Virus record (IMG/VR): IMGVR_UViG_3300011980_000002
Coordinates: 32,001-96,000 of that record
DNA: 64,000 nucleotides
Direction: 5' to 3' (one strand)
Source: a virus
Part shown: positions 2,024 to 55,321 of the stretch, one piece after another
How the letters are laid out: each line of letters begins with the position of its first letter
How positions within the stretch are numbered: the stretch's first letter is position 1
The notes under the pieces: model-generated
Told to the model about the DNA's origin: nothing
The model's input: the letters and a program-made list of their open reading frames with translations, nothing else
Databases searched by the model: none
Program-made: the position numbers and the translations under genes

Positions 2024-3196
2024 ATGGGAATTGAATTAAATAATGAACAAATCATGGCTACATATAAAGCTGAGTCATGGTGGAAATCAAGAGATAAACA
2101 AGTATTTGAAATATCCGGAGCTGCTGGAACAGGTAAAACTACATTAGTATGTTATTTAATAGAGAAATTTGGTTTAGATATGGATGAAGTATTATTTGTT
2201 GCATATATGGGAAAAGCTGTATCCCAATTAAGTAAACATGGTTTACCTGCTAAAACTATACATTCCACAATATATGACTATGAAAGAGTTCCTGATAAAG
2301 ATGAAGATGGGAATATAATCTTTAAACCTAATGGAAGAATTAAAATGGTTGGAAGATTTACATTAAAAGAAAAAATCTCTAAGAAGATTAAATTAATTAT
2401 AGTAGATGAAGGGTCTACTGTAGAAAAGAAAATGGGACAAGATTTATTATCATTTGGAGTTCCTATTATAGTATTAGGAGATTTAAACCAGTTACCACCC
2501 CCATTCGGAACTTCTATATTCTTAGATAAACCAGATATTATATTATCACAAATAATGAGACAAGCTGAGGGTGACCCTATAGTATGGTTATCTCAACAAG
2601 TACTCCATGGTAAAAGATTATCTGTAGGAGTTTATGGTAATTCTTCTGTTATTAATAAAGACAATATGTCAGATTTTATACTTAAACAAGCAGATATAGT
2701 TTTAACAGGGACTAATTTATTAAGATATCATATGAATAATCATTTCAGGGAAAATATTAAGAATTATAAAAATTTAGATTTTCCACATATTGGAGAAAAA
2801 TTAATCTGTAGAAAGAATAACTGGGATAGAATTATAGATGATGGAATTTATTTAACTAATGGAACTACTGGAGTATGTACATACTTTGAAAAAGAGTCTT
2901 ATAATGGTAAAACTTGTGTTATAGATTTCAAAAGTGATTTTAGTAAAAAGGAACTTAGAAATTTAAAGATAGATTATAATAGACTTAAGACACAAAATAC
3001 TATGGAAGAAGGATATAGTGACTATACATTAGATGTATTTGAATATGCTTATGCAATTACCGTACATAGTTCACAAGGTAGTCAATATCCAAATGTAATA
3101 CTATTAAATGAAGAATTCTTAAGTAAAGCTGATTATAAGAAATGGTTATATACGGGAATAACCAGAGCAATGAAATCTGTTACAGTAGTATTATAA
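2024..3196 (+). CDS. SF1 DNA helicase (Dda/RecD/Pif1-like)
   Basis: Walker A GAAGTGKTT, Walker B IIVDEGS, LGDLNQLPP, and C-terminal ITVHSSQGSQY. A GAAAGGA-type SD lies upstream. Confidence 0.85.
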   Translation: MGIELNNEQIMATYKAESWWKSRDKQVFEISGAAGTGKTTLVCYLIEKFGLDMDEVLFVAYMGKAVSQLSKHGLPAKTIHSTIYDYERVPDKDEDGNIIFKPNGRIKMVGRFTLKEKISKKIKLIIVDEGSTVEKKMGQDLLSFGVPIIVLGDLNQLPPPFGTSIFLDKPDIILSQIMRQAEGDPIVWLSQQVLHGKRLSVGVYGNSSVINKDNMSDFILKQADIVLTGTNLLRYHMNNHFRENIKNYKNLDFPHIGEKLICRKNNWDRIIDDGIYLTNGTTGVCTYFEKESYNGKTCVIDFKSDFSKKELRNLKIDYNRLKTQNTMEEGYSDYTLDVFEYAYAITVHSSQGSQYPNVILLNEEFLSKADYKKWLYTGITRAMKSVTVVL

Positions 3197-3202
3197 AAGA
3201 AA

Positions 3203-3248
3203 ATAATTATAGACTATAGTAGAATTAACTACTATAGTCTATAATTAT
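3203..3248 (+). terminator. Perfect 20-bp stem hairpin after the helicase gene
   Basis: ataattatagactatagtag / ctactatagtctataattat with a 6-nt loop. There is no clear T-tract on the plus strand, so termination is plausible but not certain. Confidence 0.5.
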
Positions 3249-3343
3249 TAAAAAAGCGTATTTATGAAAAAAGAAGATTTAGCTAAAAATATTATATACC
3301 GTATAATATTTACTAATATGTTATATAAGATATTAATATTAGC

Positions 3344-3369
3344 TATATAATATTAAGATGTAATATAAA
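3344..3369 (+). promoter_or_regulatory. Early-type phage promoter-like motif
   Basis: tatataatattaagatgtaatataaa matches the recurrent TATATAATATT-N(3-6)-TGTAA motif, ~25 nt upstream of the AAAGGAGAAA SD. Confidence 0.45.
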
Positions 3370-3395
3370 TATAAATTTTAAAGGAGAAAATAAAT

Positions 3396-4139
3396 ATGAG
3401 AGTTGATGTTTTTGATATAATAAATACTCACGCAAGTCTAGTGAGTAAAGATGAGATTTGTAAACTAATGGAAGATATATGGTCAGAAATGGATTACTTC
3501 GAAGTAGATTCATTTTTACCAATATTATTTAAGAGACTTTTTAGCATGGAACGCTTCGATCCAATTGCTATGGAAATATCATCAAATAGCTGCAATATTA
3601 GTATTCGTATTGATGGTTATCCAGGTTGTATGGTTGATTTCGATTATACACTTAGTAGATATTCGGATGGGTTCATTATACAATTAACATCTGTTGATGA
3701 TATACTATTCTTCAACTCCAAAGGATTTCCATTGATATATAGATTGAAAATAGGTGATATGATTAAAAAGAATAGAACTGAGGAATTTACTAAGCTTGAA
3801 TATTTACATTTAGTAGGCAAAGTCAGTCCCGAAGACTACAATACAATTGGAGATATGTTTAAATCTATACCGTCTACAGCTATGATAAATCCTTACAAAA
3901 TTTTTAATATATTAACAAATTACTATTCTAGGTATGCGAGGAGTGAAACAACAGTATATCTAGGCAATGCAGATATTGGTAAATACATACTAGATATCGT
4001 TATTAAAGATCATGATCTTATCCTCAAATATGGGATTTCTCAATCATACGAAGATAATTCGTGTTATGCGAAACTTATTAGTACCGACTATGAGAATTTA
4101 AATTTTCCAATAATATATGATTTTGGTATAAAACTCTAA
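3396..4139 (+). CDS. Fam-A paralog 1 (two ~115-aa modules), unknown function
   Basis: Aligns with 6338-7078 (MRVD../MKID.., DSF..LF.RLF, SVDD..F.NS..FPLIY.L). The C-terminus FPIIYDFGIKL matches the family ending YPIIKELSVKI. Conserved SD aaaggagaaaataaatatg. Confidence 0.8.
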   Translation: MRVDVFDIINTHASLVSKDEICKLMEDIWSEMDYFEVDSFLPILFKRLFSMERFDPIAMEISSNSCNISIRIDGYPGCMVDFDYTLSRYSDGFIIQLTSVDDILFFNSKGFPLIYRLKIGDMIKKNRTEEFTKLEYLHLVGKVSPEDYNTIGDMFKSIPSTAMINPYKIFNILTNYYSRYARSETTVYLGNADIGKYILDIVIKDHDLILKYGISQSYEDNSCYAKLISTDYENLNFPIIYDFGIKL

Positions 4140-4148
4140 AAAAAAAAC

Positions 4149-4186
4149 ACTACCAGATAGTGCTTTATATAATATTATCTGGTAGT
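4149..4186 (+). terminator. Hairpin (11-bp stem) between Fam-A genes
   Basis: actaccagata / tatctggtagt. The loop overlaps the promoter-like motif of the next gene. Confidence 0.4.
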
Positions 4187-4192
4187 AATAAA
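4166..4192 (+). promoter_or_regulatory. Early-type promoter-like motif
   Basis: tatataatattatctggtagtaataaa upstream of the SD caaaggagaaagaaatatg. Confidence 0.4.
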
Positions 4193-4222
4193 AATATTAG
4201 TTAATTCAAAGGAGAAAGAAAT

Positions 4223-4579
4223 ATGGAAATAAAGAAGTCTAACAATAAAATTTTATCATTGCAATTATTTGGCAATGTTTTATTAAGAGATTACGAGTAC
4301 ATAGAAGAAGTATTTGGTAAAATAGAATCTGATCGTTTACAAGATAGTATATTTGAAGCAATGTATACGGTATATAGGGGACGTCCAATATTGACAGTAA
4401 ATCGATATCAAAATGCACAAAATTGTATATATGTGAGTATCGGTAATGTTACAATCGACTATTATACAGAGTTTGATCGTTCGACTAATATATTAACAAT
4501 AAAAGCAGGTTCTATTGAAGGTGCTGATGCTAATAGATATCTGATAATTAGATCATTATCTGTAAAAATAAATAATTAA
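4223..4579 (+). CDS. Fam-A paralog 2 (single module)
   Basis: ILSLQLFGNVLLRDYEYIEE...IDYYTEFDRSTNILTIK...YLIIRSLSVKINN aligns with the C-terminal modules of 4601-5311 and 6338-7078. Confidence 0.8.
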   Translation: MEIKKSNNKILSLQLFGNVLLRDYEYIEEVFGKIESDRLQDSIFEAMYTVYRGRPILTVNRYQNAQNCIYVSIGNVTIDYYTEFDRSTNILTIKAGSIEGADANRYLIIRSLSVKINN

Positions 4580-4600
4580 ATTTTAAAGGAGAAAATAAAT

Positions 4601-5311
4601 ATGAGAGTTGAAACTGAAATACTTTACAAACCTGATGGAAAAACTATAAAAGTTATAACTGAAGATTATGTAAAATATTTAATAGATGAATCTTCTCGTA
4701 AGTATAATTGTACTGATGAGTCATTTATAATGTGTTCATTGTTTAATGATACTGGAGACATAGACCATTTTGAAAAGAGCAGTAATGGTACTCTTGTGAT
4801 ATTTTATAAAAGTAATTGTAGTGTAAACTATTATTACAGCTTTAAAGATAATCTTATAGATTTAAGATTGTGCAATATATCTAACTTTCAGTATTTTGTA
4901 GATAATGGTATATTAATATATGAAAAAATATTAATATCGAGAATCAATGATAAAATAAAGAAGTTTGACAATGAAATTTTATCATTACAATTATTTGGTA
5001 ATGTATCATTGGAAGATTATAGATGTATAGGAAATGCATTTAGTGAAATGGTATATAGCCCAATACATCCGTTTGATAAATTAATTGAGGTGATGTATGA
5101 CATATCTCCGAAATGTGAACCTTTACGTATTAAGCATGATTTTGAACCATTTGATACTTTGTATGTAGAAATTGGAGATACTGAAATTGAGTATTGTTCA
5201 GAATTTGACACGAATACTAATATATTAAAAATAAGGCTAGTTTCTATTGATAATTTTAATGATAATAAATATCCGATAATTAAAGAATTATCTGTAAAAA
5301 TATATAATTAA
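4601..5311 (+). CDS. Fam-A paralog 3 (two modules)
   Basis: C-terminal module ILSLQLFGNVSLEDY...IEYCSEFDTNTNILKIR...YPIIKELSVKIYN. Same SD as 3396 (aaaggagaaaataaatatgaga). Confidence 0.8.
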   Translation: MRVETEILYKPDGKTIKVITEDYVKYLIDESSRKYNCTDESFIMCSLFNDTGDIDHFEKSSNGTLVIFYKSNCSVNYYYSFKDNLIDLRLCNISNFQYFVDNGILIYEKILISRINDKIKKFDNEILSLQLFGNVSLEDYRCIGNAFSEMVYSPIHPFDKLIEVMYDISPKCEPLRIKHDFEPFDTLYVEIGDTEIEYCSEFDTNTNILKIRLVSIDNFNDNKYPIIKELSVKIYN

Positions 5312-5385
5312 GTTTATTGGGGTATATTATCATGACAGAAATAAATGATATTGATAAGTGCTGTATTAAATAAAAATTATAACTT

Positions 5386-5427
5386 ATCCGTATTATTTCA
5401 TTATATATATACTATTTATGTGTAAAT
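5386..5427 (+). promoter_or_regulatory. Extended early-type promoter-like motif (ATCCGTAT variant)
   Basis: atccgtattatttcattatatatatactatttatgtgtaaat. The same ~42-nt architecture recurs at 7982, 18827 and 44059. Confidence 0.45.
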
Positions 5428-5529
5428 AAAAAAATATATCAATTCAAAGGAGAAAGAAATATGAGAATTAAGAAATTGGAGTTAGTAAATAACAGTAAAT
5501 ATGAAGGAGCTTTAAATGTAATATAAACC

Positions 5530-6216
5530 ATGAATGAGCATATTGAAGAGTTTAATCCTGTTGAGTATATAAATAGACTCTTTAGGAAACTCCTTGTATT
5601 TAATGATAATTACGAGGATGTAAAAACTTGTGTAGATATGAACAAAGGTATTGTTACAATAAAGTGTGATTATGAAAGAGTCGTCATTGTATATAATATT
5701 AAAGTTAAATACGGTGACCTAGAATTATCTCTAAAATCTGTTAATGATTTTGAATATTTTGCAAATAGAAGTCTTTCAGTAATTCATAAACTTATTATAA
5801 CAGATTTACCGGAAGGTATTGAAGATGAGGATCGTGAATTATATAATCATGAAATATCCAATATGATACTTATCGGAAATGTAATGTCTAGGCATTATGA
5901 AATTATCAGAAATAAATTCTTATCAATTAAACCTGATAAAGATTTAGATGTTTATAAAGTGGTTAATAGGTTATATGACCATTATGACAACTATAGAAAT
6001 GCCTCAGTTACCATAACTGAGACAGCTATAGATCAATTTAAATATAATGTAACTATAACTATGGGAAGTGGCTATCAGAAGCTTGAGTATATAATCTCAT
6101 TAAATCAGAAAGATAATACTATAAGTATTAAGCTTATTGAGGATGAAGATGATGAGATAGAAGCTAATTACCCAGTGATAGCTGCTGTTGATATTAAACT
6201 CAATAAAGAAAGGTAA
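5530..6216 (+). CDS. Fam-A paralog 4 (diverged). The family-type start and SD lie at 5461 but are cut off by an in-frame TAA
   Basis: Ends YPVIAAVDIKLNK (family ending). The consensus SD+ATG at 5444-5463 opens MRIKKLELVNNSKYEGALNVI, followed by TAA at 5524-5526 in the same frame as 5530. Confidence 0.65.
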   Translation: MNEHIEEFNPVEYINRLFRKLLVFNDNYEDVKTCVDMNKGIVTIKCDYERVVIVYNIKVKYGDLELSLKSVNDFEYFANRSLSVIHKLIITDLPEGIEDEDRELYNHEISNMILIGNVMSRHYEIIRNKFLSIKPDKDLDVYKVVNRLYDHYDNYRNASVTITETAIDQFKYNVTITMGSGYQKLEYIISLNQKDNTISIKLIEDEDDEIEANYPVIAAVDIKLNKER

Positions 6217-6221
6217 TAAAA

Positions 6222-6268
6222 AATACCAGTTGATACTTATTATAGTTATTGACTGGTATTTTTTTTTT
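6222..6268. terminator. Rho-independent terminator
   Basis: aataccagt / actggtatt stem flanked by an A-run and a T-run. Confidence 0.65.
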
Positions 6269-6286
6269 ATAGTTATGAACATCATC

Positions 6287-6310
6287 TATATAATATTAAT
6301 TTGTAATAAA
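6287..6310 (+). promoter_or_regulatory. Early-type promoter-like motif
   Basis: tatataatattaatttgtaataaa, identical to the copy at 26789-26812. Confidence 0.5.
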
Positions 6311-6337
6311 TAATTAATTTTAAAGGAGAAAAGAAAT

Positions 6338-7078
6338 ATGAAAATTGATAATTTAAAGTTGATAAATGATAACAGAAGCAAATTATCTGGAGAAGAACTT
6401 CGCGAATTAATATATAATATATGGGTTGGCATGGAACGAGATTTCGATATAGATTCATTTGTATCAAGATTATTCGAGAGACTTTTTGATATAGTGTGTT
6501 CTGATGCACTGAATGTAGATATATCTGTAAAAGGTTCTAATATACATATTAATATCAATAGAGGTGTTATTCGTATGAGTTATCTTATTATTAGATATTT
6601 TGATAGTTTTAAGATTACCATAGCTTCTGTTGATGATGTTCCATTTATAAATAGTTGGGAATTTCCATTGATATATGAGTTGAGTTTGAGTGATTTTGTT
6701 AAAAAGAACAATTCCAAAGAATCTCATAATGAAATTATATCATTACAATTATTTGGTAATGTATTATTTAGAGATTACGAGTACATAGAAGAGTTATTCC
6801 GTGAAATTGATTATGGACCAAATTTTTCATATGCTATCAAACTACGTCAACCAATATATACTATATATGCAAAATACTCACCTTTATTATATGTAGATTA
6901 TCAACGTGGTACAACTAATAGATTATGTGTGAAATTTGGAGATGTCGAGATTATTTATTATATAGAATTTGACACGTCTAATATTGTATTAAAAATAACA
7001 CCATTTTCCGTCAAAGGTATTACAGATAATTATCCGATAATTAAAGAATTATCTGTAAAAATAAATAAGAATAACTAA
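6338..7078 (+). CDS. Fam-A paralog 5 (two modules)
   Basis: Both the N module (FPLIYELSLSD) and the C module (IISLQLFGNVLFRDYEYIEE...YPIIKELSVKINK) are present. Confidence 0.8.
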   Translation: MKIDNLKLINDNRSKLSGEELRELIYNIWVGMERDFDIDSFVSRLFERLFDIVCSDALNVDISVKGSNIHININRGVIRMSYLIIRYFDSFKITIASVDDVPFINSWEFPLIYELSLSDFVKKNNSKESHNEIISLQLFGNVLFRDYEYIEELFREIDYGPNFSYAIKLRQPIYTIYAKYSPLLYVDYQRGTTNRLCVKFGDVEIIYYIEFDTSNIVLKITPFSVKGITDNYPIIKELSVKINKNN

Positions 7079-7263
7079 TTTATTAGAAAGGTAATATAAA
7101 TTATAATATGGATGATGAAAAAGAAAGAATTAAAAAATATTTCGAAGATATTGTATAGGATACTAGATATTCTGAGAAATTTAAAGAAGCTTGTAATAAC
7201 GATCAGATGATATCGAATATTGAAATTGAAAAAGAATGATGTTGAAATTTGGGGTAATGATAA

Positions 7264-7614
7264 ATGGCAGAAGCACTAAGAGAAATAAACCAAAATAAAT
7301 TTACTGTTAATATACCAAAAGAAGGATTGATGAATAAAGTGGTAATCAACCAATTCTTAGGTAAAAAAGAACTACGAGTTTGTATGTACCTTATGACAAT
7401 ATTATCTGGATGGTCGGACAATAGAAGAAATTCGGTATATGCAAAAGCCGATGACCCAAAGAACTATACTTCTATAAGTATATCTAAGATAAGTGAAATA
7501 CTTCACTTAGATAAAGATGATGTTGAAAAGTCTATAAAGAAGTTAGTTAAAGAAGGTATATTAGAGAAGGGTGAAGGTAAATCGACCAAGAAAGGTTACA
7601 GATTTACTTTCTAA
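7264..7614 (+). CDS. Small winged-helix/HTH DNA-binding protein (putative regulator)
   Basis: ISKISEILHLDKDDVEKSIKKLVKEGILEK resembles an HTH recognition helix plus wing of the MarR/wHTH type. Confidence 0.5.
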   Translation: MAEALREINQNKFTVNIPKEGLMNKVVINQFLGKKELRVCMYLMTILSGWSDNRRNSVYAKADDPKNYTSISISKISEILHLDKDDVEKSIKKLVKEGILEKGEGKSTKKGYRFTF

Positions 7615-7638
7615 AATAAATATTATTGGGGGTTATAT

Positions 7639-7968
7639 ATGAATAAATTTGAAGAGATGCTACATAAACTTGATGTAGAAGCTGGAGAAAATTACAATAA
7701 AATTCTCAGGTCTATAGAAACATCTGCAATAATAACAAAGAATAAAGTTACTCAAATACAATGGTCAGGTTCAGAATATAGTAATAAAAAACGTGATAAT
7801 ATAGAGTATATAGAAATGCCGGATGGTTCATATGCGAAATTTGTAAGAATCGATGGTATATGGTATATGGAAATAGGAATAATACTTTCTAACTACCATA
7901 TAGCATTTATAGAATATTTGAATGTTGATGAGTACCTGAATACTGGTAATTTTGTAGTGATGAAATAA
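7639..7968 (+). CDS. Hypothetical protein
   Basis: ORF with SD ttggggg upstream, tightly following 7264-7614. Confidence 0.6.
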   Translation: MNKFEEMLHKLDVEAGENYNKILRSIETSAIITKNKVTQIQWSGSEYSNKKRDNIEYIEMPDGSYAKFVRIDGIWYMEIGIILSNYHIAFIEYLNVDEYLNTGNFVVMK

Positions 7969-7981
7969 GTACTTGATGTAT

Positions 7982-8025
7982 ATCCGTATATCTCCTTTCT
8001 ATATATACATACTATTCATGTGTAT
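7982..8025 (+). promoter_or_regulatory. Extended early-type promoter-like motif (ATCCGTAT variant)
   Basis: atccgtatatctcctttctatatatacatactattcatgtgtat. Confidence 0.45.
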
Positions 8026-8057
8026 CTGAATATATATATAGGAAGGAGAATAGAATT

Positions 8058-8153
8058 ATGGGATACGGAACCATTTTATACGGTACAAACCCAGTGACAA
8101 TATTTTTATTTGTTGCCATCTGGGGCATCGTATTCTTCTGGGATAGAGTCTAA
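8058..8153 (+). CDS. 31-aa hydrophobic micro-protein (not in the ORF track)
   Basis: SD ggaaggaga, ATG at 8058, peptide MGYGTILYGTNPVTIFLFVAIWGIVFFWDRV (one TM-like helix). It has its own promoter-like motif and a terminator. Confidence 0.5.
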   Translation: MGYGTILYGTNPVTIFLFVAIWGIVFFWDRV

Positions 8154-8184
8154 TAACTTCATCCCAGAAGTTATTTTTTTTTTT
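8135..8184 (+). terminator. Terminator (9-bp stem plus a long T-tract)
   Basis: cttctggga / tcccagaag followed by ttattttttttttt. Confidence 0.55.
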
Positions 8185-8251
8185 GTATTATAACCATTTA
8201 TCCTGATAGTAACGATAGTATAACCATATTGGAAAGGATTGTTATATTAAA

Positions 8252-21285: not shown

Positions 21286-22416
21286 ATGTTACAAGCAGGA
21301 GTAATAGGAATAGGAAATGCAGGAAGCCAGGTAGCAGTTTTAGCTGCACAGAATAATATTAAATCTGTAGTTATTAACTCATCTGAGAATGACTTAGCAG
21401 TAATCCCAGAATCTGTTCATAAGTTCCTAGTAGGTGACTCAAGAGGAGCCGGAAAGAACAGAGACGCTGCTAAAGGATTTTTAAAGAGTTCCATAACTTC
21501 TATTCTTAATAAAGAAGATTTCATGGAGTTTATGGATGGAAATGATGTTACTTTTGTAGTATCATCAACAGGTGGTGGAACCGGTTCAGGTATTGCACCA
21601 ATAATGACAGAGATTTTATCTCAAGCATTTCCGGATACATTTGTTATACTTGTGGGTATATTACCTACATTAAATGAGGCATATTCAACACAGGTTAATA
21701 CTGTGGCATTTGTTAAAGAGTTATATGAGAAGATTAATAAACCAACTTATATGCTCTATGATAATGAGAAGATGTCTTCAGAACCATCTCATATCATGAT
21801 GGAATCTATCAATCAGTCTATTATAGAAGATATATTAGTATTGGTTGGTAAGTATAATTATGCTACCAAATATTCTTCTATAGATGAGAAAGATATGTCT
21901 ATGATAATATCTACTCCAGGAAGATTGGTAGTATCAAGACTGGTCAATTTCAAAGAGAAAGATTTAGACCAGTCAGGTATTGATAGTAGAGTTGAAGATA
22001 TTCTCAAGAGTAACACTCATGCAGAACTTCAAAGAGATAAGGTTATTAAGAGAAGTGGAGTTATCGCTAATCTTAATGAGTCTATAGCATCTAAGTTCGA
22101 TGACCATATGACAACCTTGCAGAAGTTCGTTGGTGTTCCGGTAGAAGAATTTACCCATATTTCTATCAATGTGGAGAAAGCATTACCTAATAATGTATTC
22201 TTCATTGGTTCTGGTTTATCTCCAGTATTTGATAGATTAACCAAGATTAATGAAAGAATAGAAGAGATTGATGCTTTACAAAATGATAGTGAGAATATCT
22301 CAGATGCACTATCATCTGTAGATATGGATAAAGCTAATGAAAAGAAAGATTATAGACAGAAGAAAGATAATGATGCACCATTAGCTCTGTCAGATATATT
22401 CAAGAACTTTTCATAA
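21286..22416 (+). CDS. phuZ: Tubulin/FtsZ-family GTPase (PhuZ/TubZ-like)
   Basis: T1 loop GIGNAGSQ, tubulin signature SSTGGGTGSGIAP, and a C-terminal acidic/hydrophobic tail. Confidence 0.85.
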   Translation: MLQAGVIGIGNAGSQVAVLAAQNNIKSVVINSSENDLAVIPESVHKFLVGDSRGAGKNRDAAKGFLKSSITSILNKEDFMEFMDGNDVTFVVSSTGGGTGSGIAPIMTEILSQAFPDTFVILVGILPTLNEAYSTQVNTVAFVKELYEKINKPTYMLYDNEKMSSEPSHIMMESINQSIIEDILVLVGKYNYATKYSSIDEKDMSMIISTPGRLVVSRLVNFKEKDLDQSGIDSRVEDILKSNTHAELQRDKVIKRSGVIANLNESIASKFDDHMTTLQKFVGVPVEEFTHISINVEKALPNNVFFIGSGLSPVFDRLTKINERIEEIDALQNDSENISDALSSVDMDKANEKKDYRQKKDNDAPLALSDIFKNFS

Positions 22417-26099: not shown

Positions 26100-26696
26100 A
26101 TGAGTGAAGCAAATATTATCGAAGATGCTAAAATTAAAAATAACGCTACTATATGTGGAACGGCTGTAGTGAGAGGAGATTCTGTAATACAAGATGATTG
26201 TGAGGTATATATGCAATCAATAATAAATGATTCTTATATGTCTGGAAATTGTTGTTTATATAATGTGGAAGTTCATGACAGCAAACTCGAAGGCTGCCTA
26301 TATCTAAATCAATCCAGTATACAGAAAAGTAATATAATAGCAAATGACGCCAGAATACATAATAAAACTTTTATACATGACTCTAAACTTAAGTTAGCTG
26401 ATGATAGTGATATTTATAAAAGCTATATAGATAGGTCAACTATACAAGGATATATTACACTAAATAATGTTGAGTTGAGCAATAGTAAAGTTATTAATAA
26501 AGATGAAGAAGTCTATATTGCTGATAAAATTATTGACGGTGCTAATGTAACAAGTACTAACACTATTACATCATTTTCATTAGATTTATACGATAACCAA
26601 GAAGAATGTGATATAGTCTTCTATAAAAATAGAAATGGTAACACCACTATTACTATATCTCACAAATCTGGTGTTCACGATTCTATTGAAATTTAG
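26100..26696 (+). pseudogene. Fam-B paralog 0, 3' fragment (beta-helix part, also C-terminally truncated)
   Basis: This frame is open from ~26007 and encodes DVKKGDLGGFVSSYDNLSQYGDCWIYDDAVV, continuing the 5' fragment. It lacks the family C-terminus (..FDKVA.EYF). Confidence 0.7.
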
Positions 26697-26732
26697 ACAT
26701 CTGGTATAAAATCTAGTAAGTAATACAATAAT

Positions 26733-26770
26733 AACGGATACTACTTCAATAGTAGTATCCGTTATTTTTT
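26733..26770 (+). terminator. Rho-independent terminator
   Basis: aacggatactact / agtagtatccgtt followed by a T-tract. Near-duplicate of the terminator at 25675-25717. Confidence 0.75.
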
Positions 26771-26788
26771 TATAATATTAAAGTTATC

Positions 26789-26812
26789 TATATAATATTA
26801 ATTTGTAATAAA
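26789..26812 (+). promoter_or_regulatory. Early-type promoter-like motif
   Basis: tatataatattaatttgtaataaa. Confidence 0.5.
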
Positions 26813-26840
26813 ATAATATTATATTAAAGGAGAAAAAAAT

Positions 26841-27812
26841 ATGGAAAAGAATAATAGTATTAATAATAAATACGAAATAACCGATATTGTCGGTTATAGG
26901 TTTAAGAAGAAAGTATATCGTATAAGAGCATTAAAAGATTTTGGAGATGTTAAGAAAGGAGATTTAGGTGGTTTTGTATCTTCCTATGAAAATCTTTCCC
27001 AAGAAAATGACTGTTGGATATATGATAACGCAGCAGTTATGGATAATGCTATATTAGAAGACAATTCTACTATTCATAATAGGGTCATCGTGTGTCATGA
27101 TAGTATTGTCCGTTGTAACTCTAAAATTTCCAAAAGTTGTAGAATATATGACTCTACTAAGATAACAAATTCTACAATATCTGGTAAATCCGTATTAAGG
27201 AATATTAATATAGTTGGAAGTACAATAAATGGAGTTATTCTCTCATACAAAGGTAATGTGTGGATCGAGTACTCTACTATCAGGGGTTCACTATTATTAA
27301 GTGAATCATTAATTTTTAATAGTAAGATTATTTCAGATAGAGCTTCTATATATCAAGACTCGGTAATTATGAGATCGAATATAAGATTATTAAATGGGTC
27401 AGATATATATAGTTCATGGGTATATGAGTATTCTAATATATATGCTAATCTCAAATTACATAATAGCAAGATATATAGATCCGATATTATTGGTGATATT
27501 AATAACATGATTAAAATTGTAAATAAACGAGTAGAGATGGGATATATTACATGTACAGAAGATATCATATCACTTTCAGTTGACATAAATACGATAGGTT
27601 TTGATACATTCAATTATTACCCATCTATTAATTGCCGGAATACTAGAAATATTAAGCTCATAATATCAACACAACTTACATATTATAATAACATAGATGA
27701 TGTAATTAAATCCATTAGTGAACATATGGGAACATCTGCTCCTGCTTATTTTGTAAAAACGCTTAGAAACTTTGACAAGCTCGCTAAAGAATATTTTAAT
27801 ATCACTGAATAA
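26841..27812 (+). CDS. Fam-B paralog 1: YdcK-like left-handed beta-helix repeat protein
   Basis: YRIRALKDFGDVKKGDLGGFVSSYENLSQENDCWIYDNAAVMDNA parallels the E. coli YdcK N-terminus (..[37 protein letters not shown]..), followed by hexapeptide-like repeats. Confidence 0.65.
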   Translation: MEKNNSINNKYEITDIVGYRFKKKVYRIRALKDFGDVKKGDLGGFVSSYENLSQENDCWIYDNAAVMDNAILEDNSTIHNRVIVCHDSIVRCNSKISKSCRIYDSTKITNSTISGKSVLRNINIVGSTINGVILSYKGNVWIEYSTIRGSLLLSESLIFNSKIISDRASIYQDSVIMRSNIRLLNGSDIYSSWVYEYSNIYANLKLHNSKIYRSDIIGDINNMIKIVNKRVEMGYITCTEDIISLSVDINTIGFDTFNYYPSINCRNTRNIKLIISTQLTYYNNIDDVIKSISEHMGTSAPAYFVKTLRNFDKLAKEYFNITE

Positions 27813-27832
27813 ATTAAAGGAGAAAAAGAAAT

Positions 27833-28909
27833 ATGGAAAAGAATAATGAAATACTAAATGAGAATAGGTTAACCGAGAAAACAATTAGCCCTGAAGATTA
27901 TCATAAGCTACTATTAATGCTTGATGATGATAGAAAGAAATTCGTGAACGATCCGATAGATAAAGTCGTTAATATTAATAACAAATATGAGATAACTGAT
28001 ATTGTAGGTTATAGATTTAAGAAGAAAGTCTATCGTATAAGAGCATTAAAAGATTTTGGAGATGTGAAGAAAGGTGATTTGGGTGGATTTGTATATTCTT
28101 ATGAAAACCTTTCTCAAGATGACAACTGTTGGATATACGATAATGCAGTTGTTATGGAAAATGCAACTGTTATCACAGATGCTAAAATTAAAGGTAATGT
28201 TACTGTATATGGAGAAGCTGTAGTAAGAGGAAATTCTATAGTAGAAGATAGTTGTTGGATATATGGGGAATCTTTTATTGTGGATTCTCATATATCTGGA
28301 AAATGCCGTCTATGTGATACAAAAGTTGATAGAAGTAGACTTAAAGGATATATATTAGACATACTCAAAGGTTCCCTTATACAAGATTCATATATTAGAG
28401 GTTGTTTATATCTAAAGTCTTCAGATATTACTAGAAGCAATGTAATATCCGATACTGCGTATATATCCGGTAGGACTTATGTATCAGGTTCTAAGCTTAG
28501 ACTGATGAGAGATAGTGATATTTATAAATCCTACATATCCATGTCATCAACTATACGAGGTTATGTTAAATTAGATTGTGCTAAGTTAGTTAGAAGTGAA
28601 TTCGTTAACATAAAAGAAGAAATTTATGTTAAGAATAAAACTATTGCTGATGGATATATCACAAACACTAATGACGCTATATCATTCTCGGTAGATTTAC
28701 ATGATAAGAAAGAAGAGTATGAGCTATTCTTCTATAAGAATAAAGGTGGTAATATTGTTATATATTACAGATTCTGGATATTTGACTCTATTGATAAACT
28801 GATATCACATATAAAAAATAATAATAAGTCTAATGATAATATTAAAGCCATTGAAGTATTCAGGTATTTTGATAAGGTTGCTAGGGAATATTTTGCTACC
28901 AATAAATAA
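27833..28909 (+). CDS. Fam-B paralog 2: YdcK-like beta-helix protein with a ~45-aa N-terminal extension
   Basis: Same conserved block, plus repeats such as NATVITDAKIKGNVTVYGEAVVRGNSIVEDSCWI. Confidence 0.65.
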   Translation: MEKNNEILNENRLTEKTISPEDYHKLLLMLDDDRKKFVNDPIDKVVNINNKYEITDIVGYRFKKKVYRIRALKDFGDVKKGDLGGFVYSYENLSQDDNCWIYDNAVVMENATVITDAKIKGNVTVYGEAVVRGNSIVEDSCWIYGESFIVDSHISGKCRLCDTKVDRSRLKGYILDILKGSLIQDSYIRGCLYLKSSDITRSNVISDTAYISGRTYVSGSKLRLMRDSDIYKSYISMSSTIRGYVKLDCAKLVRSEFVNIKEEIYVKNKTIADGYITNTNDAISFSVDLHDKKEEYELFFYKNKGGNIVIYYRFWIFDSIDKLISHIKNNNKSNDNIKAIEVFRYFDKVAREYFATNK

Positions 28910-28929
28910 TTCAAAGGAGAAAAAGAAAT

Positions 28930-30135
28930 ATGGAAAATAATAGGTCTACTGAAATTAAAGACTTAAAATTCGAGTTAGAGAATTTAATGGTTAATAATGA
29001 TAATATTAAAGAGTTGGGAGACTATATTCACAAATTATCCGGTATATTATTATCTAAAACGATACTAATGAATGAATTATACAACTATTCCGGTGATAAT
29101 AGAAATTATCAAAAATTATTAAGTGAAACTAAGAAAATATCAAAACTTATAATAAGAGCTCAAGATAGAATAGCTCTATTAGATACTCATTATTCCAATA
29201 ATAAATATGAGATAACTGATATTGTCGGTTATAGGTTTAAAAAGAAAGTATACCGTATAAGAGCATTGAAAGATTTCTCAGATGTTAAGAAAGGTGATTT
29301 AGGTGGATTTGTATCTTCCTATGAAAACCTTTCACAATATGGTGATTGTTGGATATATGACAATGCTGCTATTATAGATAATGCTCTATTAGAAAATGAT
29401 TCTACTGTGCATAATATGACTATCGTGTATGATAATAGTATTATTAGAGGGGAATCTAAAGTATATAATAGTACTAGAATATGTGGAAGTTCATATATAA
29501 ATAATTCTAACATATTCGGCAAATCATTTCTAAGAAATGTGTTTATACAAGGTAGTGGAATAAAAGGAAATCTGATAACTGATAAAAATAAATCAAGTAT
29601 TATTTGCTCATATATCAGAGGTTCATTATCTTTAAGAGGTTCTCTTATTTCCGGTTCCAGTATTATTTCTGACATGGCGAATATATATCAGGGTTCATCA
29701 ATAATTAAATCAAATCTGAGATTGTGTAAAAATTCTCATATCAATAACATCTATATGGAGAATTGTGCAACTGTGTGTGGTAAAATGATGTTAAAAAATA
29801 CTACTATAACAGATTCTAAAATAAATGGTAATAATGATAATGAAATTAAAATCATAAATAAGAGAATACTTCATGGATGTATCAAAGATACAAATGATGT
29901 TATCTCACTATCATTAGATGTTGCTGGTGCTATTACAGATTCTACTGATAAATTATGTTATTATAGGAACGAAAATGATAAATTGTATATATCATTTTAT
30001 TTCTCATACTTTAATTCTATTGAAGCTGTAATTGAATTTATAAAAGATCAACAGAGAGTATCATTTACTGAAGATTATATAGAGTTATTGAGACAGTTTG
30101 ATAAGGTTGCACAAAATCATTTCAATAGTAACTAA
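28930..30135 (+). CDS. Fam-B paralog 3: YdcK-like beta-helix protein with a ~95-aa N-terminal extension
   Basis: Same conserved block and shared C-terminus ..LLRQFDKVAQNHF. Confidence 0.65.
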   Translation: MENNRSTEIKDLKFELENLMVNNDNIKELGDYIHKLSGILLSKTILMNELYNYSGDNRNYQKLLSETKKISKLIIRAQDRIALLDTHYSNNKYEITDIVGYRFKKKVYRIRALKDFSDVKKGDLGGFVSSYENLSQYGDCWIYDNAAIIDNALLENDSTVHNMTIVYDNSIIRGESKVYNSTRICGSSYINNSNIFGKSFLRNVFIQGSGIKGNLITDKNKSSIICSYIRGSLSLRGSLISGSSIISDMANIYQGSSIIKSNLRLCKNSHINNIYMENCATVCGKMMLKNTTITDSKINGNNDNEIKIINKRILHGCIKDTNDVISLSLDVAGAITDSTDKLCYYRNENDKLYISFYFSYFNSIEAVIEFIKDQQRVSFTEDYIELLRQFDKVAQNHFNSN

Positions 30136-30359: not shown

Positions 30360-32873
30360 ATGGTTAAAGATGTAGAAGTCCAATGGACGGATGATGATAT
30401 TGAGAAAATCCAAAGAAAACCAAATTTATATATTCGTAAATATGGTAATGAAGGATGTAATCATCTTTCTCATGAGATTATACAAAATGCCATTGATGAA
30501 GTTATAGATGAAACTTCCAATGGTGATATGTTGGCAATAAGAATAGATTATCCTTTAGGTAAATTAACCGTAAGTGATAATGGTAGAGGATTTCCGGAAA
30601 CTAAATATCCTTTAGATATATTCTGTACTAAAATACAATCCGGTAGTAAAGCTAATAGAGACCAATCTGGTGGAACTGCCGGAGAATTTGGTATAGGTGC
30701 TACAGTATGTAATGCTTTATCTTCTTATTTTAGAATTACCTCTAATAGAAGTAAAGAGAAGTATATACATACGATAGAATTTGAAAATGGTAAAATGATA
30801 TCAGATAAGAAAAAAGATAATCCTAAGAAACTTCACGGTAGTACTGTAGAGTTTATTCCTAATCCTAAATACCTAGGAAAGAATTCTCATATAGTATATG
30901 AAGATATTCATAAATGGATTAAAGATATGAGCTATCTATTATCTTCGGAGAAGAAATCTATAGAAATAGTATTTGAGGTTTATGATAATGACAAATCTAT
31001 TATTAAAGAGAAAATCAAACCTCAACCATTCTCATCATTATTATCTACTATAGTAAAGAAACAAGCAGTATCTCCAATATCTTTTAATAAAAGAACTAAG
31101 TTTATGGAGACTACTCATTTAAATGAAAAACCTACAGAGAAAGAATTATATTTAGATGTATCATTTACATATGATGATATTACCGATGTTAATGAACCTA
31201 ATATAGTGGAGTCATTTTGTAACTATACAAGAACTACAGATGGTGGTGTTCATGTACAAGCTGTAGATGAAGCTATATGCAGATACTTACAAACAGAAAC
31301 TAAGAAAAGACTATCTGAGAAAGAAAAAGAGAAGATAGATATATTATGGCAAGATGTAAGAACTGATTTAAGACTATTAATAAATCTTACATCCAATGGT
31401 CAGGTACAGTTTGTTGGTAATGCTAAAACTAAAATAGGAAATGAGAATTTTATTCCTATAATAAAAGAATTAGTTAATGAGTCATTAACTAATATCTTTA
31501 ATGATAATGAAGCTTTACTTAATTCATATTGTAAGATAGTTAAGACTAATGCTAAAGCAAGAATAGAGTTAAATAAGGCTAAGAAATCCGTATCTATTAA
31601 AACTAAGTCTAATCCATTCATGGATAAATTATCTAAGAGGTATTATTCATGTAATAATAGAGGTAAGGCTTATAAAGAAATCTACTTAGTAGAGGGACAA
31701 AAATCAGCAGCAGGTTCTATAGCTTCTGGAAGAAATCCAGATGTACAAGCTGTATACGGATTTAGAGGAATGACTGCTAACCCTTATAAGAGAGACAATA
31801 TCTCTATCATGGAAAATGAAGAGTTAAAAGAATACTGTGAAAGAATTCATTATGACATTAAATCTGGTAATGTGGAAGATGTTTATTTTAATAAGATAAT
31901 AATGAGTTTTGATGCAGATAGTGATGGATATGGAATTAGCTCAGGTGTAGCAGCATTCCATGCTAAATTTGCTAGACCTATAGTAGAAGCTGGTTTATTG
32001 TATAAAGTATATCCACCATTATATTTAATAGATGATAAGACTCATCCTTATATAAGGAATAAAGAAGAATATATAGAAGTATATAGAGATAATATCATTA
32101 GGAATTATACCATAACTTCTATAGGTAATAATAACTCTAAATTATCTAAATCTGATTTTAAAGAGTTTATAGATATTACTAAATATTATACTGAGACATT
32201 AACAAGAGTAGCATCTCATTACTCTGTTAATAGATATTTAATAGAATTAGTTGGATATCATATAACGATGTATATATTAGCTAAATATCTTAAGAATAAT
32301 AAGAATTTAGATATTAATGAGGTATTAGAGTATTATGAGGATTTATCCCAAGAAGTTTATAAATCTCATATTAATACTGCTTTAAATGACCAGAAGTTTG
32401 TAAGTTCCTTCATGAAAGATATACAAGATGAATTCCCTGAGATAACTCTAAATGAGAAATACTTGACTGGGGTTATTGATGGTAAATATCAGGTAATAAA
32501 GATTAGTTATAACCTAATGAAGAAACTATCAGACTTAACAGAAACTTTTATCACATATGGACTTCATATTACTTATAGTGAAAAGAAATCTGATGAGATT
32601 AAATCTACCATAGGATATATGCTAGACTCTGCTAGTAAATATATCCCAAAGATAATAACCAGATACAAGGGACTTGGAGAAGCTAACTATGACCAAATAG
32701 CAGAAACTATAATGGACCCATCTAAAAGAATTCTGGTTCAATTAACATTTGACGATATTGAAAGAGATTTAAAGATATTTGATACTCTTCATGGTATATC
32801 TACAGATGATAAGAAATCAAGAAAGCAGATGATGAAGTCTTATAAGATTAGAAGAGAGGACATTGATAATTAG
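30360..32873 (+). CDS. Type II DNA topoisomerase, ATPase/TOPRIM subunit (GyrB/ParE, T4 gp39-like)
   Basis: HEIIQNAIDE, DNGRGFP, GGTAGEFGIGATVCNALS, TOPRIM EIYLVEGQKSAAGS and FDADSDGYGI. Confidence 0.85.
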   Translation: MVKDVEVQWTDDDIEKIQRKPNLYIRKYGNEGCNHLSHEIIQNAIDEVIDETSNGDMLAIRIDYPLGKLTVSDNGRGFPETKYPLDIFCTKIQSGSKANRDQSGGTAGEFGIGATVCNALSSYFRITSNRSKEKYIHTIEFENGKMISDKKKDNPKKLHGSTVEFIPNPKYLGKNSHIVYEDIHKWIKDMSYLLSSEKKSIEIVFEVYDNDKSIIKEKIKPQPFSSLLSTIVKKQAVSPISFNKRTKFMETTHLNEKPTEKELYLDVSFTYDDITDVNEPNIVESFCNYTRTTDGGVHVQAVDEAICRYLQTETKKRLSEKEKEKIDILWQDVRTDLRLLINLTSNGQVQFVGNAKTKIGNENFIPIIKELVNESLTNIFNDNEALLNSYCKIVKTNAKARIELNKAKKSVSIKTKSNPFMDKLSKRYYSCNNRGKAYKEIYLVEGQKSAAGSIASGRNPDVQAVYGFRGMTANPYKRDNISIMENEELKEYCERIHYDIKSGNVEDVYFNKIIMSFDADSDGYGISSGVAAFHAKFARPIVEAGLLYKVYPPLYLIDDKTHPYIRNKEEYIEVYRDNIIRNYTITSIGNNNSKLSKSDFKEFIDITKYYTETLTRVASHYSVNRYLIELVGYHITMYILAKYLKNNKNLDINEVLEYYEDLSQEVYKSHINTALNDQKFVSSFMKDIQDEFPEITLNEKYLTGVIDGKYQVIKISYNLMKKLSDLTETFITYGLHITYSEKKSDEIKSTIGYMLDSASKYIPKIITRYKGLGEANYDQIAETIMDPSKRILVQLTFDDIERDLKIFDTLHGISTDDKKSRKQMMKSYKIRREDIDN

Positions 32874-32874
32874 T

Positions 32875-38483: not shown

Positions 38484-40235
38484 ATGAAAAATATATTGCC
38501 TTTCATGACAGAGTCTGGAAGTACATTTTCTCAGACATCTACCATTGGGTCTTTTTCTAATGGTAGACATATGAATTCATTCGATGATAACTATACAAGA
38601 GTTTATAATCAGTTTAATAATCAAGGACTTAAGATAAATACAGATATTCGTGCTATACTCGAAGATCAGGCTATTTATGAGAGTTTCCGTGATGAACTTA
38701 TAAGTGATATACTTAATGATTGTGATCATTATAGTTATGCTGAGCATGGTAACCTTGCAGCATTAGCTGAGCAGGTTTCTACCATGATGGATAACAGAAG
38801 AGATATGCTTCTTTCAGAGTCTGTTACAACCGGTACTTTGCTTCCAATAAAGATGATTGACTTCCCACTTATCGTTAAGGAACATCTTAAGAATGTTATT
38901 AAGGATATTATGCAGTGTGAAGTTACCAAGTCACCTGTTATTAAGAAGCATATTCAACATACATGGATAGTTGATAAGAAGACAAAGAAGAGATATGAGT
39001 ATCCACAGTGCTTCTATAGAAAAGGACAAGCTGCTGAGTTATTTGATGCAGGTAAGGGATATAAGCTCAATGATACTCCTTGTACTCTTCCAGCATTTAA
39101 TTATAAGATAATTGATAACCATGTTACTGGTATATCACTTCCGGAAAGAGAGAAGCTCTCTATAAATACAAAGATAGTTTATGGTGTACTTGCAGATAAT
39201 ACTAAGGTACCTCTTGACATGAGAATCAATCTTGCAGATGGTTCTTGGTTAGGTGGACTTATAGATACAAAGGTAGAGTCAACAGCTACACCTGGTACAT
39301 TCCATGATGTTAAGGATTGTATTACCGGTTATGTAGATTTCACTAATAATACTACATCCATATCATCTGCTAATGGAACTATTAAGAAGGTTATATTTGA
39401 AGGATATCTTTCAAATGAACTTAATGAAAGAGCTGTAACATTCGATTACTCAAGAGAGGAAAGAGAATGGAAGATTGAAGATGGACATAGAGTTGATGTT
39501 CCATATTCAATAGAGGAGCTTGAAGATGCTAAGGCACTTCTTGACCTTGATTTGTACAAACTTAGCTATAGTAATCTTTCTGATTACTTAGTAAATATGG
39601 AAGACGCTGATGGTCTCGCCTATCTTGATGAAGCATTTAAGAAGTTTGAAGGTCTTACTCTTGACCCACTTGATTTTAATGGTTTCGTTAAGAAGCAGAC
39701 ATTTGATTGTGATTCTACTCATGCTACTGTAGCTCTTCCATGTGAATATATCGAGAAGCAACTTAAGTTCTTGATAGATAGATTTGTTATTGATATAGCT
39801 GATACTGCTAAGCTTGATGATGTTACATTTGTTATTTATGGTAACCCAAGATATGTTTCACTTCTCGGTGGAGCTGTTAACTGGGTTGTTAATAGTGGTG
39901 ATACAATTGGTGGTGTTAAGCTTACAAATAGTTATGGTATAATGAACTCTGGTGGAGTTAAGATACAAGTTATATCTTCTGATAAGATACTTGTTCCGGA
40001 TAATAAGGGTCTTAAGATTATACCATATCCAACATCTGATAAGACAATGACATTTAAACACTATAAGTATACATCTCATATACTTACTGCTGCTAATTCT
40101 GCTTATAAGGATGCTGATAGACCAGGTGGAAGCTATACAAATATCGTTGGTGTTTCAAGATACACCAATGCAGGTATACAGCAAATACAGGGTCATATTA
40201 CATTTACAAATGATACATCATATATTAAGATATAA
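38484..40235 (+). CDS. Probable major capsid protein
   Basis: 583-aa ORF with a clear codon-usage shift (ctt, aag, ggt, gct) typical of very highly expressed genes. It is preceded by the acidic protein and followed by a strong terminator. No motif-level identification was possible. Confidence 0.5.
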   Translation: MKNILPFMTESGSTFSQTSTIGSFSNGRHMNSFDDNYTRVYNQFNNQGLKINTDIRAILEDQAIYESFRDELISDILNDCDHYSYAEHGNLAALAEQVSTMMDNRRDMLLSESVTTGTLLPIKMIDFPLIVKEHLKNVIKDIMQCEVTKSPVIKKHIQHTWIVDKKTKKRYEYPQCFYRKGQAAELFDAGKGYKLNDTPCTLPAFNYKIIDNHVTGISLPEREKLSINTKIVYGVLADNTKVPLDMRINLADGSWLGGLIDTKVESTATPGTFHDVKDCITGYVDFTNNTTSISSANGTIKKVIFEGYLSNELNERAVTFDYSREEREWKIEDGHRVDVPYSIEELEDAKALLDLDLYKLSYSNLSDYLVNMEDADGLAYLDEAFKKFEGLTLDPLDFNGFVKKQTFDCDSTHATVALPCEYIEKQLKFLIDRFVIDIADTAKLDDVTFVIYGNPRYVSLLGGAVNWVVNSGDTIGGVKLTNSYGIMNSGGVKIQVISSDKILVPDNKGLKIIPYPTSDKTMTFKHYKYTSHILTAANSAYKDADRPGGSYTNIVGVSRYTNAGIQQIQGHITFTNDTSYIKI

Positions 40236-41703: not shown

Positions 41704-41711
41704 ATAATATA

Positions 41712-55320: not shown

Positions 55321-55321
55321 C

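Follow-up and report, generated by a model that had tools for sequence, protein, structure and literature searches.

A putative hyperplastic accessory island carrying an undescribed family of tandem paralogs in an uncultured AR9/PBS1-like jumbo phage

The DNA considered here, hereafter the window, is a stretch of 64,000 nucleotides (nt) corresponding to positions 32,001 to 96,000 of the IMG/VR record IMGVR_UViG_3300011980_000002. It has a GC content of 27% and, judging by its sequence, belongs to an uncultured jumbo phage of the AR9/PBS1-like kind. Its + strand carries, at 3396-7078, an array of related genes that we term Fam-A, in the form of five open reading frames (ORFs) at 3396-4139, 4223-4579, 4601-5311, 5530-6216, and 6338-7078. 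The region has the appearance of a hyperplastic accessory island, or early-type gene array, that carries a previously undescribed protein family. The anatomy of this array and its evolutionary dynamics can be given with high confidence; that the Fam-A proteins would be early, non-enzymatic, dispensable binders acting in host interaction or anti-defence is a more tentative reading, to which we assign a probability of roughly 0.45.

All five proteins (named below after the first position of their genes) are mutually homologous in BLASTP comparisons within a five-sequence database, with E-values ranging from 1e-31 for g3396 versus g6338, through 3e-27 for g4223 versus g6338, to 4e-6 for the weakest pair, g4601 versus g3396. 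When all 234 six-frame ORFs in the window were searched with a hidden Markov model (HMM) of the family, exactly these five were retrieved (E 2e-36 to 3e-92) and no sixth intact copy, the next match having an E-value of 0.05. From left to right, the paralogs are type A (3396..4139, 247 amino acids (aa), with an N module at nt 3396-3779 and a C module at nt 3780-4136), type B (4223..4579, 118 aa, a single C-type module), type C (4601..5311, 236 aa, N module 4601-4960 and C module 4961-5308), type D (5461..6216, 251 codons with an in-frame TAA at 5524-5526, N module 5461-5838 and C module 5839-6213), and type E (6338..7078, 246 aa, N module 6338-6718 and C module 6719-7075), all on the + strand. 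An earlier note on this DNA had counted nine modules, distributed over four two-module proteins and the single-module g4223, and this count is correct. The C-module motifs that it quoted describe g4223, g4601, and g6338, which have 42-50% identity to one another in this module, but not g3396 and g5530, whose C modules are only 25-38% identical to those of the other three; similarly, the ending FPLIY(R/E)L, which was attributed to the N modules in general, is present in g3396 and g6338 only.

The fourth gene had been placed at 5530. The coordinates of this ORF (5530-6216, 228 aa) are right, but not its start, since the ancestral ATG is at 5461 and is preceded by the ribosome-binding site (RBS) shared with the other genes. 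Indeed, a canonical type D RBS and ATG occupy 5446-5463, in a frame that is in phase with ATG 5530 and that is broken by the TAA at 5524-5526, two codons upstream of ATG 5530. In four homologs from related phages (P0003, P0005, P0007, and P0011), this codon is GAA (Glu), and the proteins, of 251-264 aa, read ...ALNVIETMNEH... across it, which makes the type D gene of the window a nonsense allele. A product begun at ATG 5530 would be without the first beta strand of the predicted N domain, and would correspond to either a truncated remnant or a re-initiation product.

The two-module form arose by internal duplication, as had been proposed, and the N and C modules are distant homologs. In hhalign comparisons, the two kinds of module align in register across 76 columns with a probability of 81% and an E-value of 1.3e-5 (an earlier, smaller module set gave 55% and 1.2e-4). 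When the C-module HMM was searched on the N modules, and the reverse, many members scored better than at least 99% of composition-matched shuffles, and the best cases were exceeded by none of 3,600 shuffles. Moreover, the N-module HMM, run over the whole window, had the single-module g4223 as its top non-self match. The order of predicted elements is also the same in both halves. The AlphaFold2 model of g6338 (predicted local distance difference test (pLDDT) score, 82.8) has two domains with an identical order of secondary structures: a strand at residues 2-9, helices at 18-31 and 38-53, and four strands followed by a last one at 111-118 in the N domain, and a strand at residues 132-140, helices at 144-155 and 165-178, and four strands followed by a last one at 233-241 in the C domain. 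This beta-alpha-alpha-beta5 order defines a module of about 115-125 residues, and g4223, modelled alone, gives a confident single-module fold (pLDDT 87.9, predicted template modelling score 0.81).

Column entropy in the alignment is lowest in the terminal strands beta1 and beta6 (about 1.1 bits), intermediate in helix alpha1, and highest in the segment alpha2-beta2-beta3 (1.9-2.3 bits). The module thus has a conserved frame consisting of beta1, beta6, and alpha1; the variable alpha2-beta2-beta3 segment might constitute a specificity surface. Invariant or near-invariant positions are taken up by hydrophobic or structural amino acids (L, G, V, Y, I, F, P, and one K), and none of them is occupied by a conserved residue of the catalytic type. 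Within the lineage of the window, isoelectric points are between 4.4 and 6.3 (4.4-6.0 for the two-module proteins), with the exception of a 123-aa single-module protein at 8.4. Hydropathy, taken as averages only and without a dedicated transmembrane predictor, does not rise above about zero, and this speaks against membrane segments. Fam-A would therefore seem, from sequence features of this kind, to be an orphan family of soluble, acidic proteins without sign of a catalytic site.

No known domain had been recognised in these proteins, and this finding stands. Comparison of Fam-A with Pfam, PHROGs, NCBIfam, and PADLOC gave only sub-threshold noise (for Pfam, the five proteins had zero matches at E-values up to 1), as did a Fam-A profile run against PDB sequences at E-values up to 10. 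Within the same four libraries, there was no match to a characterised anti-CRISPR, anti-restriction-modification, anti-CBASS, or similar protein. Foldseek searches with a two-domain model (against PDB and BFVD) and with a single-domain model (against PDB) returned nothing with an E-value below 0.001 and no template modelling score (TM-score) above 0.4. Profile and structure searches, which the earlier note had proposed as a check, do not therefore assign Fam-A to any known structural-protein family. The top BFVD match was A0A8S5LJK1 (E 4e-3), an uncharacterised 281-aa protein from a ‘Myoviridae sp.’, which may belong to the second of the two lineages in which the family occurs (see below). Entries of the Bet v 1/PR-10, FABP, and hot-dog types were recurrent weak Foldseek matches, and were dropped as fold assignments because their TM-scores were below 0.4. 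The Bet v 1/SRPBCC helix-grip fold was rejected on the basis of a best Foldseek E-value of 0.079, TM-scores of 0.33-0.37, and a root-mean-square deviation of over 12 Å. This fold does resemble Fam-A in having a beta-alpha-alpha start followed by an antiparallel beta meander, but its long C-terminal helix is missing from the Fam-A model, where there is also no evidence for a ligand pocket; the weak Bet v 1/PR-10 matches reflect only the beta-alpha-alpha-meander topology. The nearest relatives in culture, PBS1/AR9, phage S6, and phiR1-37, are uracil-DNA phages, and a role for Fam-A as a Ugi-like DNA mimic was considered for that reason. It found no support: no match to Ugi, SAUGI, or p56 was obtained in PDB sequences at E-values up to 10, and these proteins were absent among the matches listed (the best 50) in each of two Foldseek searches of PDB.

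Larger searches yielded few relatives. Among 5.8 billion proteins, a word-seeded search retrieved 12 that belong to Fam-A; 11 were obtained when HMMER was run in full over 1.84 billion representative proteins, and 15, none of them annotated, in a second profile search. These matches come from two lineages of metagenomic contigs of roughly 200-220 kb, namely, that of the window and a distant one represented by the phage L013; IMG/VR added one locus and a scan of metagenome contigs added three, all from near-identical relatives. In a set of 50,697 phage records, neither g6338 nor P0020, a homolog from L013, had a tblastn match, and megablast of 10 kb gave no DNA-level match. No Fam-A homolog was found in AR9, PBS1, or other cultured relatives, and Rfam gave no match over positions 3000-7500 of the window. 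On present sequence data, Fam-A appears to be confined to two rare phage lineages.

The genes of the array are accompanied by repeated expression signals. The motif TATATAATATTA occurs seven times in the window, where 0.75 copies would be expected; every copy is on the + strand, and six of them lie between genes. This motif or a variant of it (for which we used the pattern TATA[TC]A[AC]TATT[AT]-N2-4-[TG]GTA) lies at -51 to -57 from the ATG of four of the five Fam-A genes, namely, g3396, g4223, the 5461 start, and g6338. The early-type promoter-like motif before g3396 is TATATAATATTAAGATGTA (3344..3362, + strand, 52 nt upstream of the ATG). That before g4223 (4166-4184, + strand) is overlapped by the 3' arm and loop of a hairpin at 4149..4186 (+ strand, no U-run, RNAfold -17.1 kcal/mol), so that the two form one composite stem-loop/promoter cassette. 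The variant TATATACTATTTATGTGTA (5406..5424, + strand) precedes ATG 5461 and is kept in the related phage L011, and TATATAATATTAATTTGTA (6287..6305, + strand, 51 nt upstream of ATG 6338) is conserved before the type E genes of the related phages L001, L004, and L011. Before g4601, which starts 22 nt after g4223, there is no such motif, and these two genes are probably co-transcribed. Several of the genes had been credited with both a promoter-like motif and a terminator of their own, and it is the motif (four genes out of five) that is borne out; the only canonical terminator is an intrinsic-terminator-like hairpin with a run of ten Us at 6218..6264 (+ strand, RNAfold -19.5 kcal/mol). In addition, a terminator-like scan detected a perfect 21-bp hairpin without a U-run at 3202..3249 (no strand assigned, RNAfold -26.3 kcal/mol), after the gene for a superfamily 1 (SF1) helicase, and it is by this hairpin that the variable island is bounded on its left.

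As to translation, AAAGGAGAAA followed by 4-7 nt and an ATG precedes all five Fam-A genes. A related RBS is thus common to the family, in line with the claim made for most of its genes, although the exact string quoted in support of this fits two genes only. AAAGGAGAAA is present in 16 copies in the window, compared with 0.46 expected, and lies upstream of some ten further genes that have this class of promoter, so it is a signal of the class rather than a signature of the family. The promoter motif itself is found before non-structural genes that include the one at 9566, after the gene for a UvsX-like recombinase, in the operon upstream of the gene for the non-virion RNA polymerase beta subunit. 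Neither the major head protein gene nor the other structural genes of the window are preceded by it, and their RBS context is different. A variant of the motif is also found upstream of the gene for a PhuZ-like tubulin (21286-22416; phrog_4733, E 1e-12).

The nearest experimentally defined counterpart of the motif comes from AR9, whose injected virion RNA polymerase uses early promoters with the consensus AAATATATATTAT-N6-G(+1) (Lavysh et al. 2017, PMC5312081); AGATATATATTATaaaaaaG and AAATATATATTATtaaaaaG are examples taken from the AR9 record. In the window, the motif TATATAATATTA-N4-G resembles this consensus, with differences in register and spacing. Moreover, the copy at 9497-9516, directly after the UvsX gene, is conserved in five relatives and is syntenic with the experimentally mapped AR9 promoter P087 (L015 14061-14073), in a part of the AR9 genome that comprises, in order, UvsX (g086), early promoter P087, g087-088, and the non-virion RNA polymerase beta subunit (g089). 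The earlier note spoke of early-type, individually transcribed genes; the second half of this description is consistent with the motifs that four of the five genes possess, and the first is reasoned by analogy with AR9 only. The AR9 late-promoter motif AACA-N6-T[AG] was also tried as a classifier of genes, and was dropped because its three matches before 46 genes are at the estimated chance level.

Five related metagenomic phages, L001, L004, L006, L007, and L011, were used for comparison. In all of them, the site of the array is fixed, the order being helicase, array, a 116-aa winged helix-turn-helix (wHTH) protein, a 109-aa protein, UvsX, and RNA polymerase beta. The flanks are 86-96% identical in DNA, and the array between them contains from two to six Fam-A genes drawn from six types, with at least two copies retained in every related phage examined. 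The window has A, B, C, D (the nonsense allele), and E, together with the scar of F; L011 has B, A, C, D, E, and F; L004 has A, a fusion of the N module of C with B, then C, D, and E; L007 has A, a single module of the type E C kind, a 70-aa ORF, and F; L006 has C and D; and L001 has E and F, followed by a TnpB insertion. The Fam-A ORFs are intact in nearly all of these relatives.

Modules have also been exchanged within genes, the chimeras swapping them at the linker. P0008 combines an N module of type C (70% identity) with a C module of type E (93%), P0009 an N module of type A (74%) with a C module of type E (87%), and P0010 an N module of type C (66%) with the type B module (96%), whilst P0012 is a single module of the type E C kind with a B-type start. 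In L004, the module that makes up the whole of type B in the window is, at 96% identity, the C half of a two-module protein. Direct repeats are present at the two joints concerned. At the first, the promoter-RBS-start region, they are 45-54 nt long with 76-91% identity; at the second, where the C modules start and end, they are about 100 nt long with 63-80% identity; and the direct repeats D3, D4, and D6 cover promoter/stem-loop cassettes. The first cassette after the helicase gene, TATATAATATTAAGATGTA, is identical in L004, L006, L007, and L011, whichever of A, B, or C follows it. The sixth member of the family, type F, has left a scar in the window at 7109..7250 (+ strand), where the start of the 70-aa leader ORF, with a TGG-to-TAG change, is joined to the last twelve or so codons of type F; relative to L007, about 810 bp have been deleted via the 8-bp microhomology GATGATAT. 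TnpB (IS605 OrfB/Cas12f-like) genes are found inside the arrays of relatives directly after type F, at 11613-12860 in L001 and at 1073-2314 in L009.

The ratios of nonsynonymous to synonymous substitution rates (dN/dS) were estimated by the Nei-Gojobori method for the window genes against those of L004, L001, L007, and L006. For the helicase, wHTH, UvsX, and RNA polymerase beta genes, dN/dS is 0.00-0.05, with dS values of 0.24-1.2 and protein identities of 89-99.7%. For the Fam-A orthologs, where dS is similar to that of the core genes, dN/dS is 0.13-1.05 (mostly 0.2-0.55) and protein identity is 75-98%. Fam-A proteins thus evolve far faster than their neighbours and mostly remain under purifying selection. 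The description of the family as rapidly diversifying is upheld, given that close relatives differ in gene content, that modules have been exchanged, and that dN/dS exceeds the values of the flanking core genes by a factor of 10-100; its justification lies mainly in the flux of gene content and in recombination.

Could the array then be largely neutral, that is, the decaying ORFan cargo of a recombination hotspot, in which repeated regulatory cassettes sustain genes of little or no selected function? The nonsense allele and the microhomology deletion in the window would fit this idea, as would the TnpB insertions in relatives, a copy number that varies from two to six, dN/dS values that reach 1.05, and the very narrow distribution of the family. 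However, dN/dS for most orthologs (0.13-0.55) indicates purifying selection, the ORFs are intact in nearly all relatives with at least two copies in each phage examined, the module frame is conserved across two lineages that are otherwise dissimilar (within the L013 fragment), and the AlphaFold2 models are confident, all of which renders neutrality improbable.

The explanation that we favour is one in which each gene cassette would consist of a stem-loop and/or the promoter motif, then a strong RBS, and then the ORF, with the promoter motif probably being read early by an injected virion RNA polymerase, as in AR9. Homologous recombination at two joints, the promoter-RBS-start region and the segment comprising the inter-module linker and beta1, would lead to the gain, loss, and reordering of genes, to domain swaps, and to single-module derivatives. 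Single copies would be dispensable, as suggested by the nonsense allele and deletion in the window and by the insertion sequences in relatives. The proteins themselves would most likely act stoichiometrically by binding to, or inhibiting, variable proteins of the host (or of a competitor) early in infection; the outcome would be host takeover or counter-defence, in which the different paralogs and domain combinations would cover different targets. A bolder version of this explanation, which we consider rather doubtful, is that Fam-A is a new fold that serves AR9-like jumbo phages as a combinatorial toolkit for counter-defence or host takeover. Each of its two homologous domains would recognise targets in its own right, new combinations would arise by recombination at the conserved inter-domain joint, its single-module versions would be homodimers, and its promoter-RBS cassettes, read by the virion RNA polymerase, would provide a PeSL-like mode of exchange (for promoter-early stem-loop) outside the T4 group.

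Several findings weigh against the reading of Fam-A as early host-directed binders. The translation start region is not specific to the family, about ten other genes of the window having AAAGGAGAAA. The spacing between ATATTA and the conserved G is 4 nt in the window and 7 nt in AR9. The motif contains a perfect TATAAT and may thus be recognised by the host sigma-A RNA polymerase; against this, sigma-70-like sites in the array region (58) are no more numerous than expected from shuffles (63), there is no conserved -35 element, and the conserved promoter element continues downstream of TATAAT. Elevated dN/dS values that are mostly below 1 could just as well reflect a relaxation of constraint on genes that are dispensable, and the window has one broken copy (D) and one deleted copy (F). 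Finally, there is the setting of the family in the other lineage. L013, a phage of about 200 kb without other detectable similarity to the window within the fragment compared, has four tandem two-module homologs of 275-279 aa at 5381-8840, which match the window family in hhalign with a probability of 96.8% and an E-value of 2e-10. These homologs are packed between the genes for the major head protein and a DUF6275 protein, on one side, and that for the head maturation protease, on the other, and no promoter-like motif was found in their array. This setting fits late or virion-associated expression better.

The L013 arrangement raises the possibility that Fam-A proteins are packaged, like T4 IPI-III or the inner-body proteins of phiKZ; synthesised late, they would enter the head and be injected together with the DNA, and might still counter host defences on entry. 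Their genes in L013 are directly between those for the major head protein and the protease, which is where the phage of the window has a gene of the phiKZ_IP family (43054-44010; internal head protein, PF12699, E 7e-8). Moreover, the loci for T4 internal proteins typically contain tandem, diversifying sets of paralogs in which the 5' regions are conserved. Fam-A itself, however, has no match to phiKZ_IP or to any virion PHROG, and the L013 homologs gave no phiKZ_IP match in Pfam at E-values up to 0.1. In the lineage of the window, the array lies among replication and transcription genes, its promoter motif and its class of RBS are those found at non-structural genes, and the phiKZ_IP-like gene near the capsid gene of the same phage is a separate one. 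In the models, the predicted fold begins at residue 2 (two-module proteins) or 9 (single-module protein), which would leave no room for an N-terminal propeptide or capsid-targeting sequence, and inspection of the Fam-A N termini for a prohead-protease cleavage motif revealed no consistent pattern. Packaging is, in our opinion, the most plausible of the rival explanations whilst being unlikely.

Another possibility is that Fam-A serves the phage itself in its replication, transcription, or intracellular organisation by providing adaptors for the helicase, UvsX, the RNA polymerase, or the PhuZ-type cytoskeleton. This would be in keeping with the location of the array between the SF1 helicase gene (2024-3196), on the left, and, on the right, the wHTH gene, which is replication-initiator-like, the UvsX-like recombinase gene (8252-9484), and the non-virion RNA polymerase beta gene (the beta subunit of a multisubunit enzyme, 10585-12891); it would also be in keeping with the promoter class that the array and the PhuZ-like tubulin gene have in common. 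Yet the partners in the core machinery are 98-99.7% conserved, whereas Fam-A is variable in presence, order, and sequence, and essential cofactors are not expected to be lost or swapped among near-identical phages. AR9, PBS1, and the other cultured relatives are, in addition, without a Fam-A homolog. We regard this possibility as very improbable. The least probable explanation, in our estimation, is superinfection exclusion or competition between phages, with Fam-A binding to components of rival phages or satellites. The signature of an arms race (presence/absence polymorphism, domain shuffling, and elevated dN/dS) would be the same as that of the favoured host-directed role, but nothing points to exclusion specifically. 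Most known exclusion proteins are membrane proteins, whereas Fam-A proteins look cytoplasmic, with no membrane proteins predicted from hydropathy.

The wider window, in which genes were named by PHROGs or Pfam, is consistent with an AR9-like phage. The closest cultured relatives of its RNA polymerase beta subunit are those of the Bacillus phages PBS1 and AR9 (31% identity), followed by those of the Staphylococcus jumbo phages S6 and PALS_2, Yersinia phage phiR1-37, and Listeria phage LPJP1. The terminase (13669-16891) is interrupted by an HNH endonuclease, the ATPase part of the large subunit being at 13669-14625, the endonuclease at 14618-15430, and the nuclease part at 15605-16891, which suggests an intron- or intein-like interruption. 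Topoisomerase II is encoded at 30360-35295 and the major head protein at 38484-40235. No tRNA genes were found in the window, and no chimallin was recognised there by Pfam or PHROGs; an ORF of 647 aa at 35416-37359 is without matches. Three further sets of paralogs are present. A second tandem array (26100-30135) contains four genes, 29-53% identical and assigned to phrog_5070/7964, with the promoter motif before the second of them (26841) and a AAAGGAGAAA RBS before genes 2-4. In the structural region, a pair of paralogs (40357-43025) comes right after the major head protein gene, and a family of five or six genes (48408-54481) shows identities of 25-62%, the upstream regions of 48408 and 52460 being near-identical. 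At around 54500, the GC and AT skews change sign and coding turns to the minus strand (54571-62472); this change marks a boundary of divergent or convergent transcription.

What might the array be useful for? With six protein types and about eleven module variants, it offers a small test set for early jumbo-phage effectors, in which alpha2-beta2-beta3 is the likely specificity region and domain-swap variants are available from nature. With the promoter motif, the early-type genes of this uncultured lineage could also be catalogued. Moreover, cassette-mediated modular shuffling, known from T4-type phages, seems to be active in an AR9-like jumbo phage that has a different type of promoter, and to work there within genes, at the domain boundary, as well as between them.

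The layout of the array is closest to that of the hyperplastic regions of T4-type phages, where PeSL cassettes bring about the modular shuffling of ORFans that are not essential (Arbiol et al. 2010, PMC2839356; PMC4122927). In both cases, a variable block lies between conserved core genes and differs in content among close relatives, composite cassettes of promoter and stem-loop are repeated and flank the ORFs (in the array, the motif at four of the five genes, and three hairpins), and insertions, deletions, and replacements occur through recombination at the cassettes. There are three differences. The T4 PeSL contains a -35/-10 sigma-70 promoter, whereas the array motif is unlike that and resembles the early promoter of the AR9 virion RNA polymerase; the cargo in T4 is made up of unrelated ORFans, whereas that of the array is a single paralogous family; and the array, unlike the T4 regions, has a second recombination joint inside the genes, at the module boundary, that results in domain swaps.

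The early units of AR9 have in common with the array an AT-rich, highly conserved element of about 12-13 nt followed by a short spacer and a G, and the position of this element a few tens of nt upstream of a strong RBS; the succession of UvsX, promoter, small genes, and non-virion RNA polymerase beta is also common to AR9 and the window. They differ in consensus and spacing (AAATATATATTAT-N6-G as opposed to TATATAATATTA-N4-G) and in that AR9 is without a Fam-A homolog. The T4 IPI-III and phiKZ inner-body (PF12699) proteins are, like Fam-A, encoded by tandem, diversifying, dispensable sets of paralogs, and the Fam-A homologs of L013 adjoin capsid and protease genes; Fam-A differs from them in the lack of a sequence or profile match and of an N-terminal targeting peptide or propeptide, and in the non-structural, early-type context of the genes in the lineage of the window.

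A last comparison may be made with the host-takeover module of SPO1, a cluster of short early genes that each have a strong promoter and a strong RBS and that are mostly unrelated to one another. We know of no homology between these genes and Fam-A. The likeness is in the organisation, since the array too consists of short genes, presumably early by analogy with AR9, that have promoter-like motifs of their own and a strong RBS.

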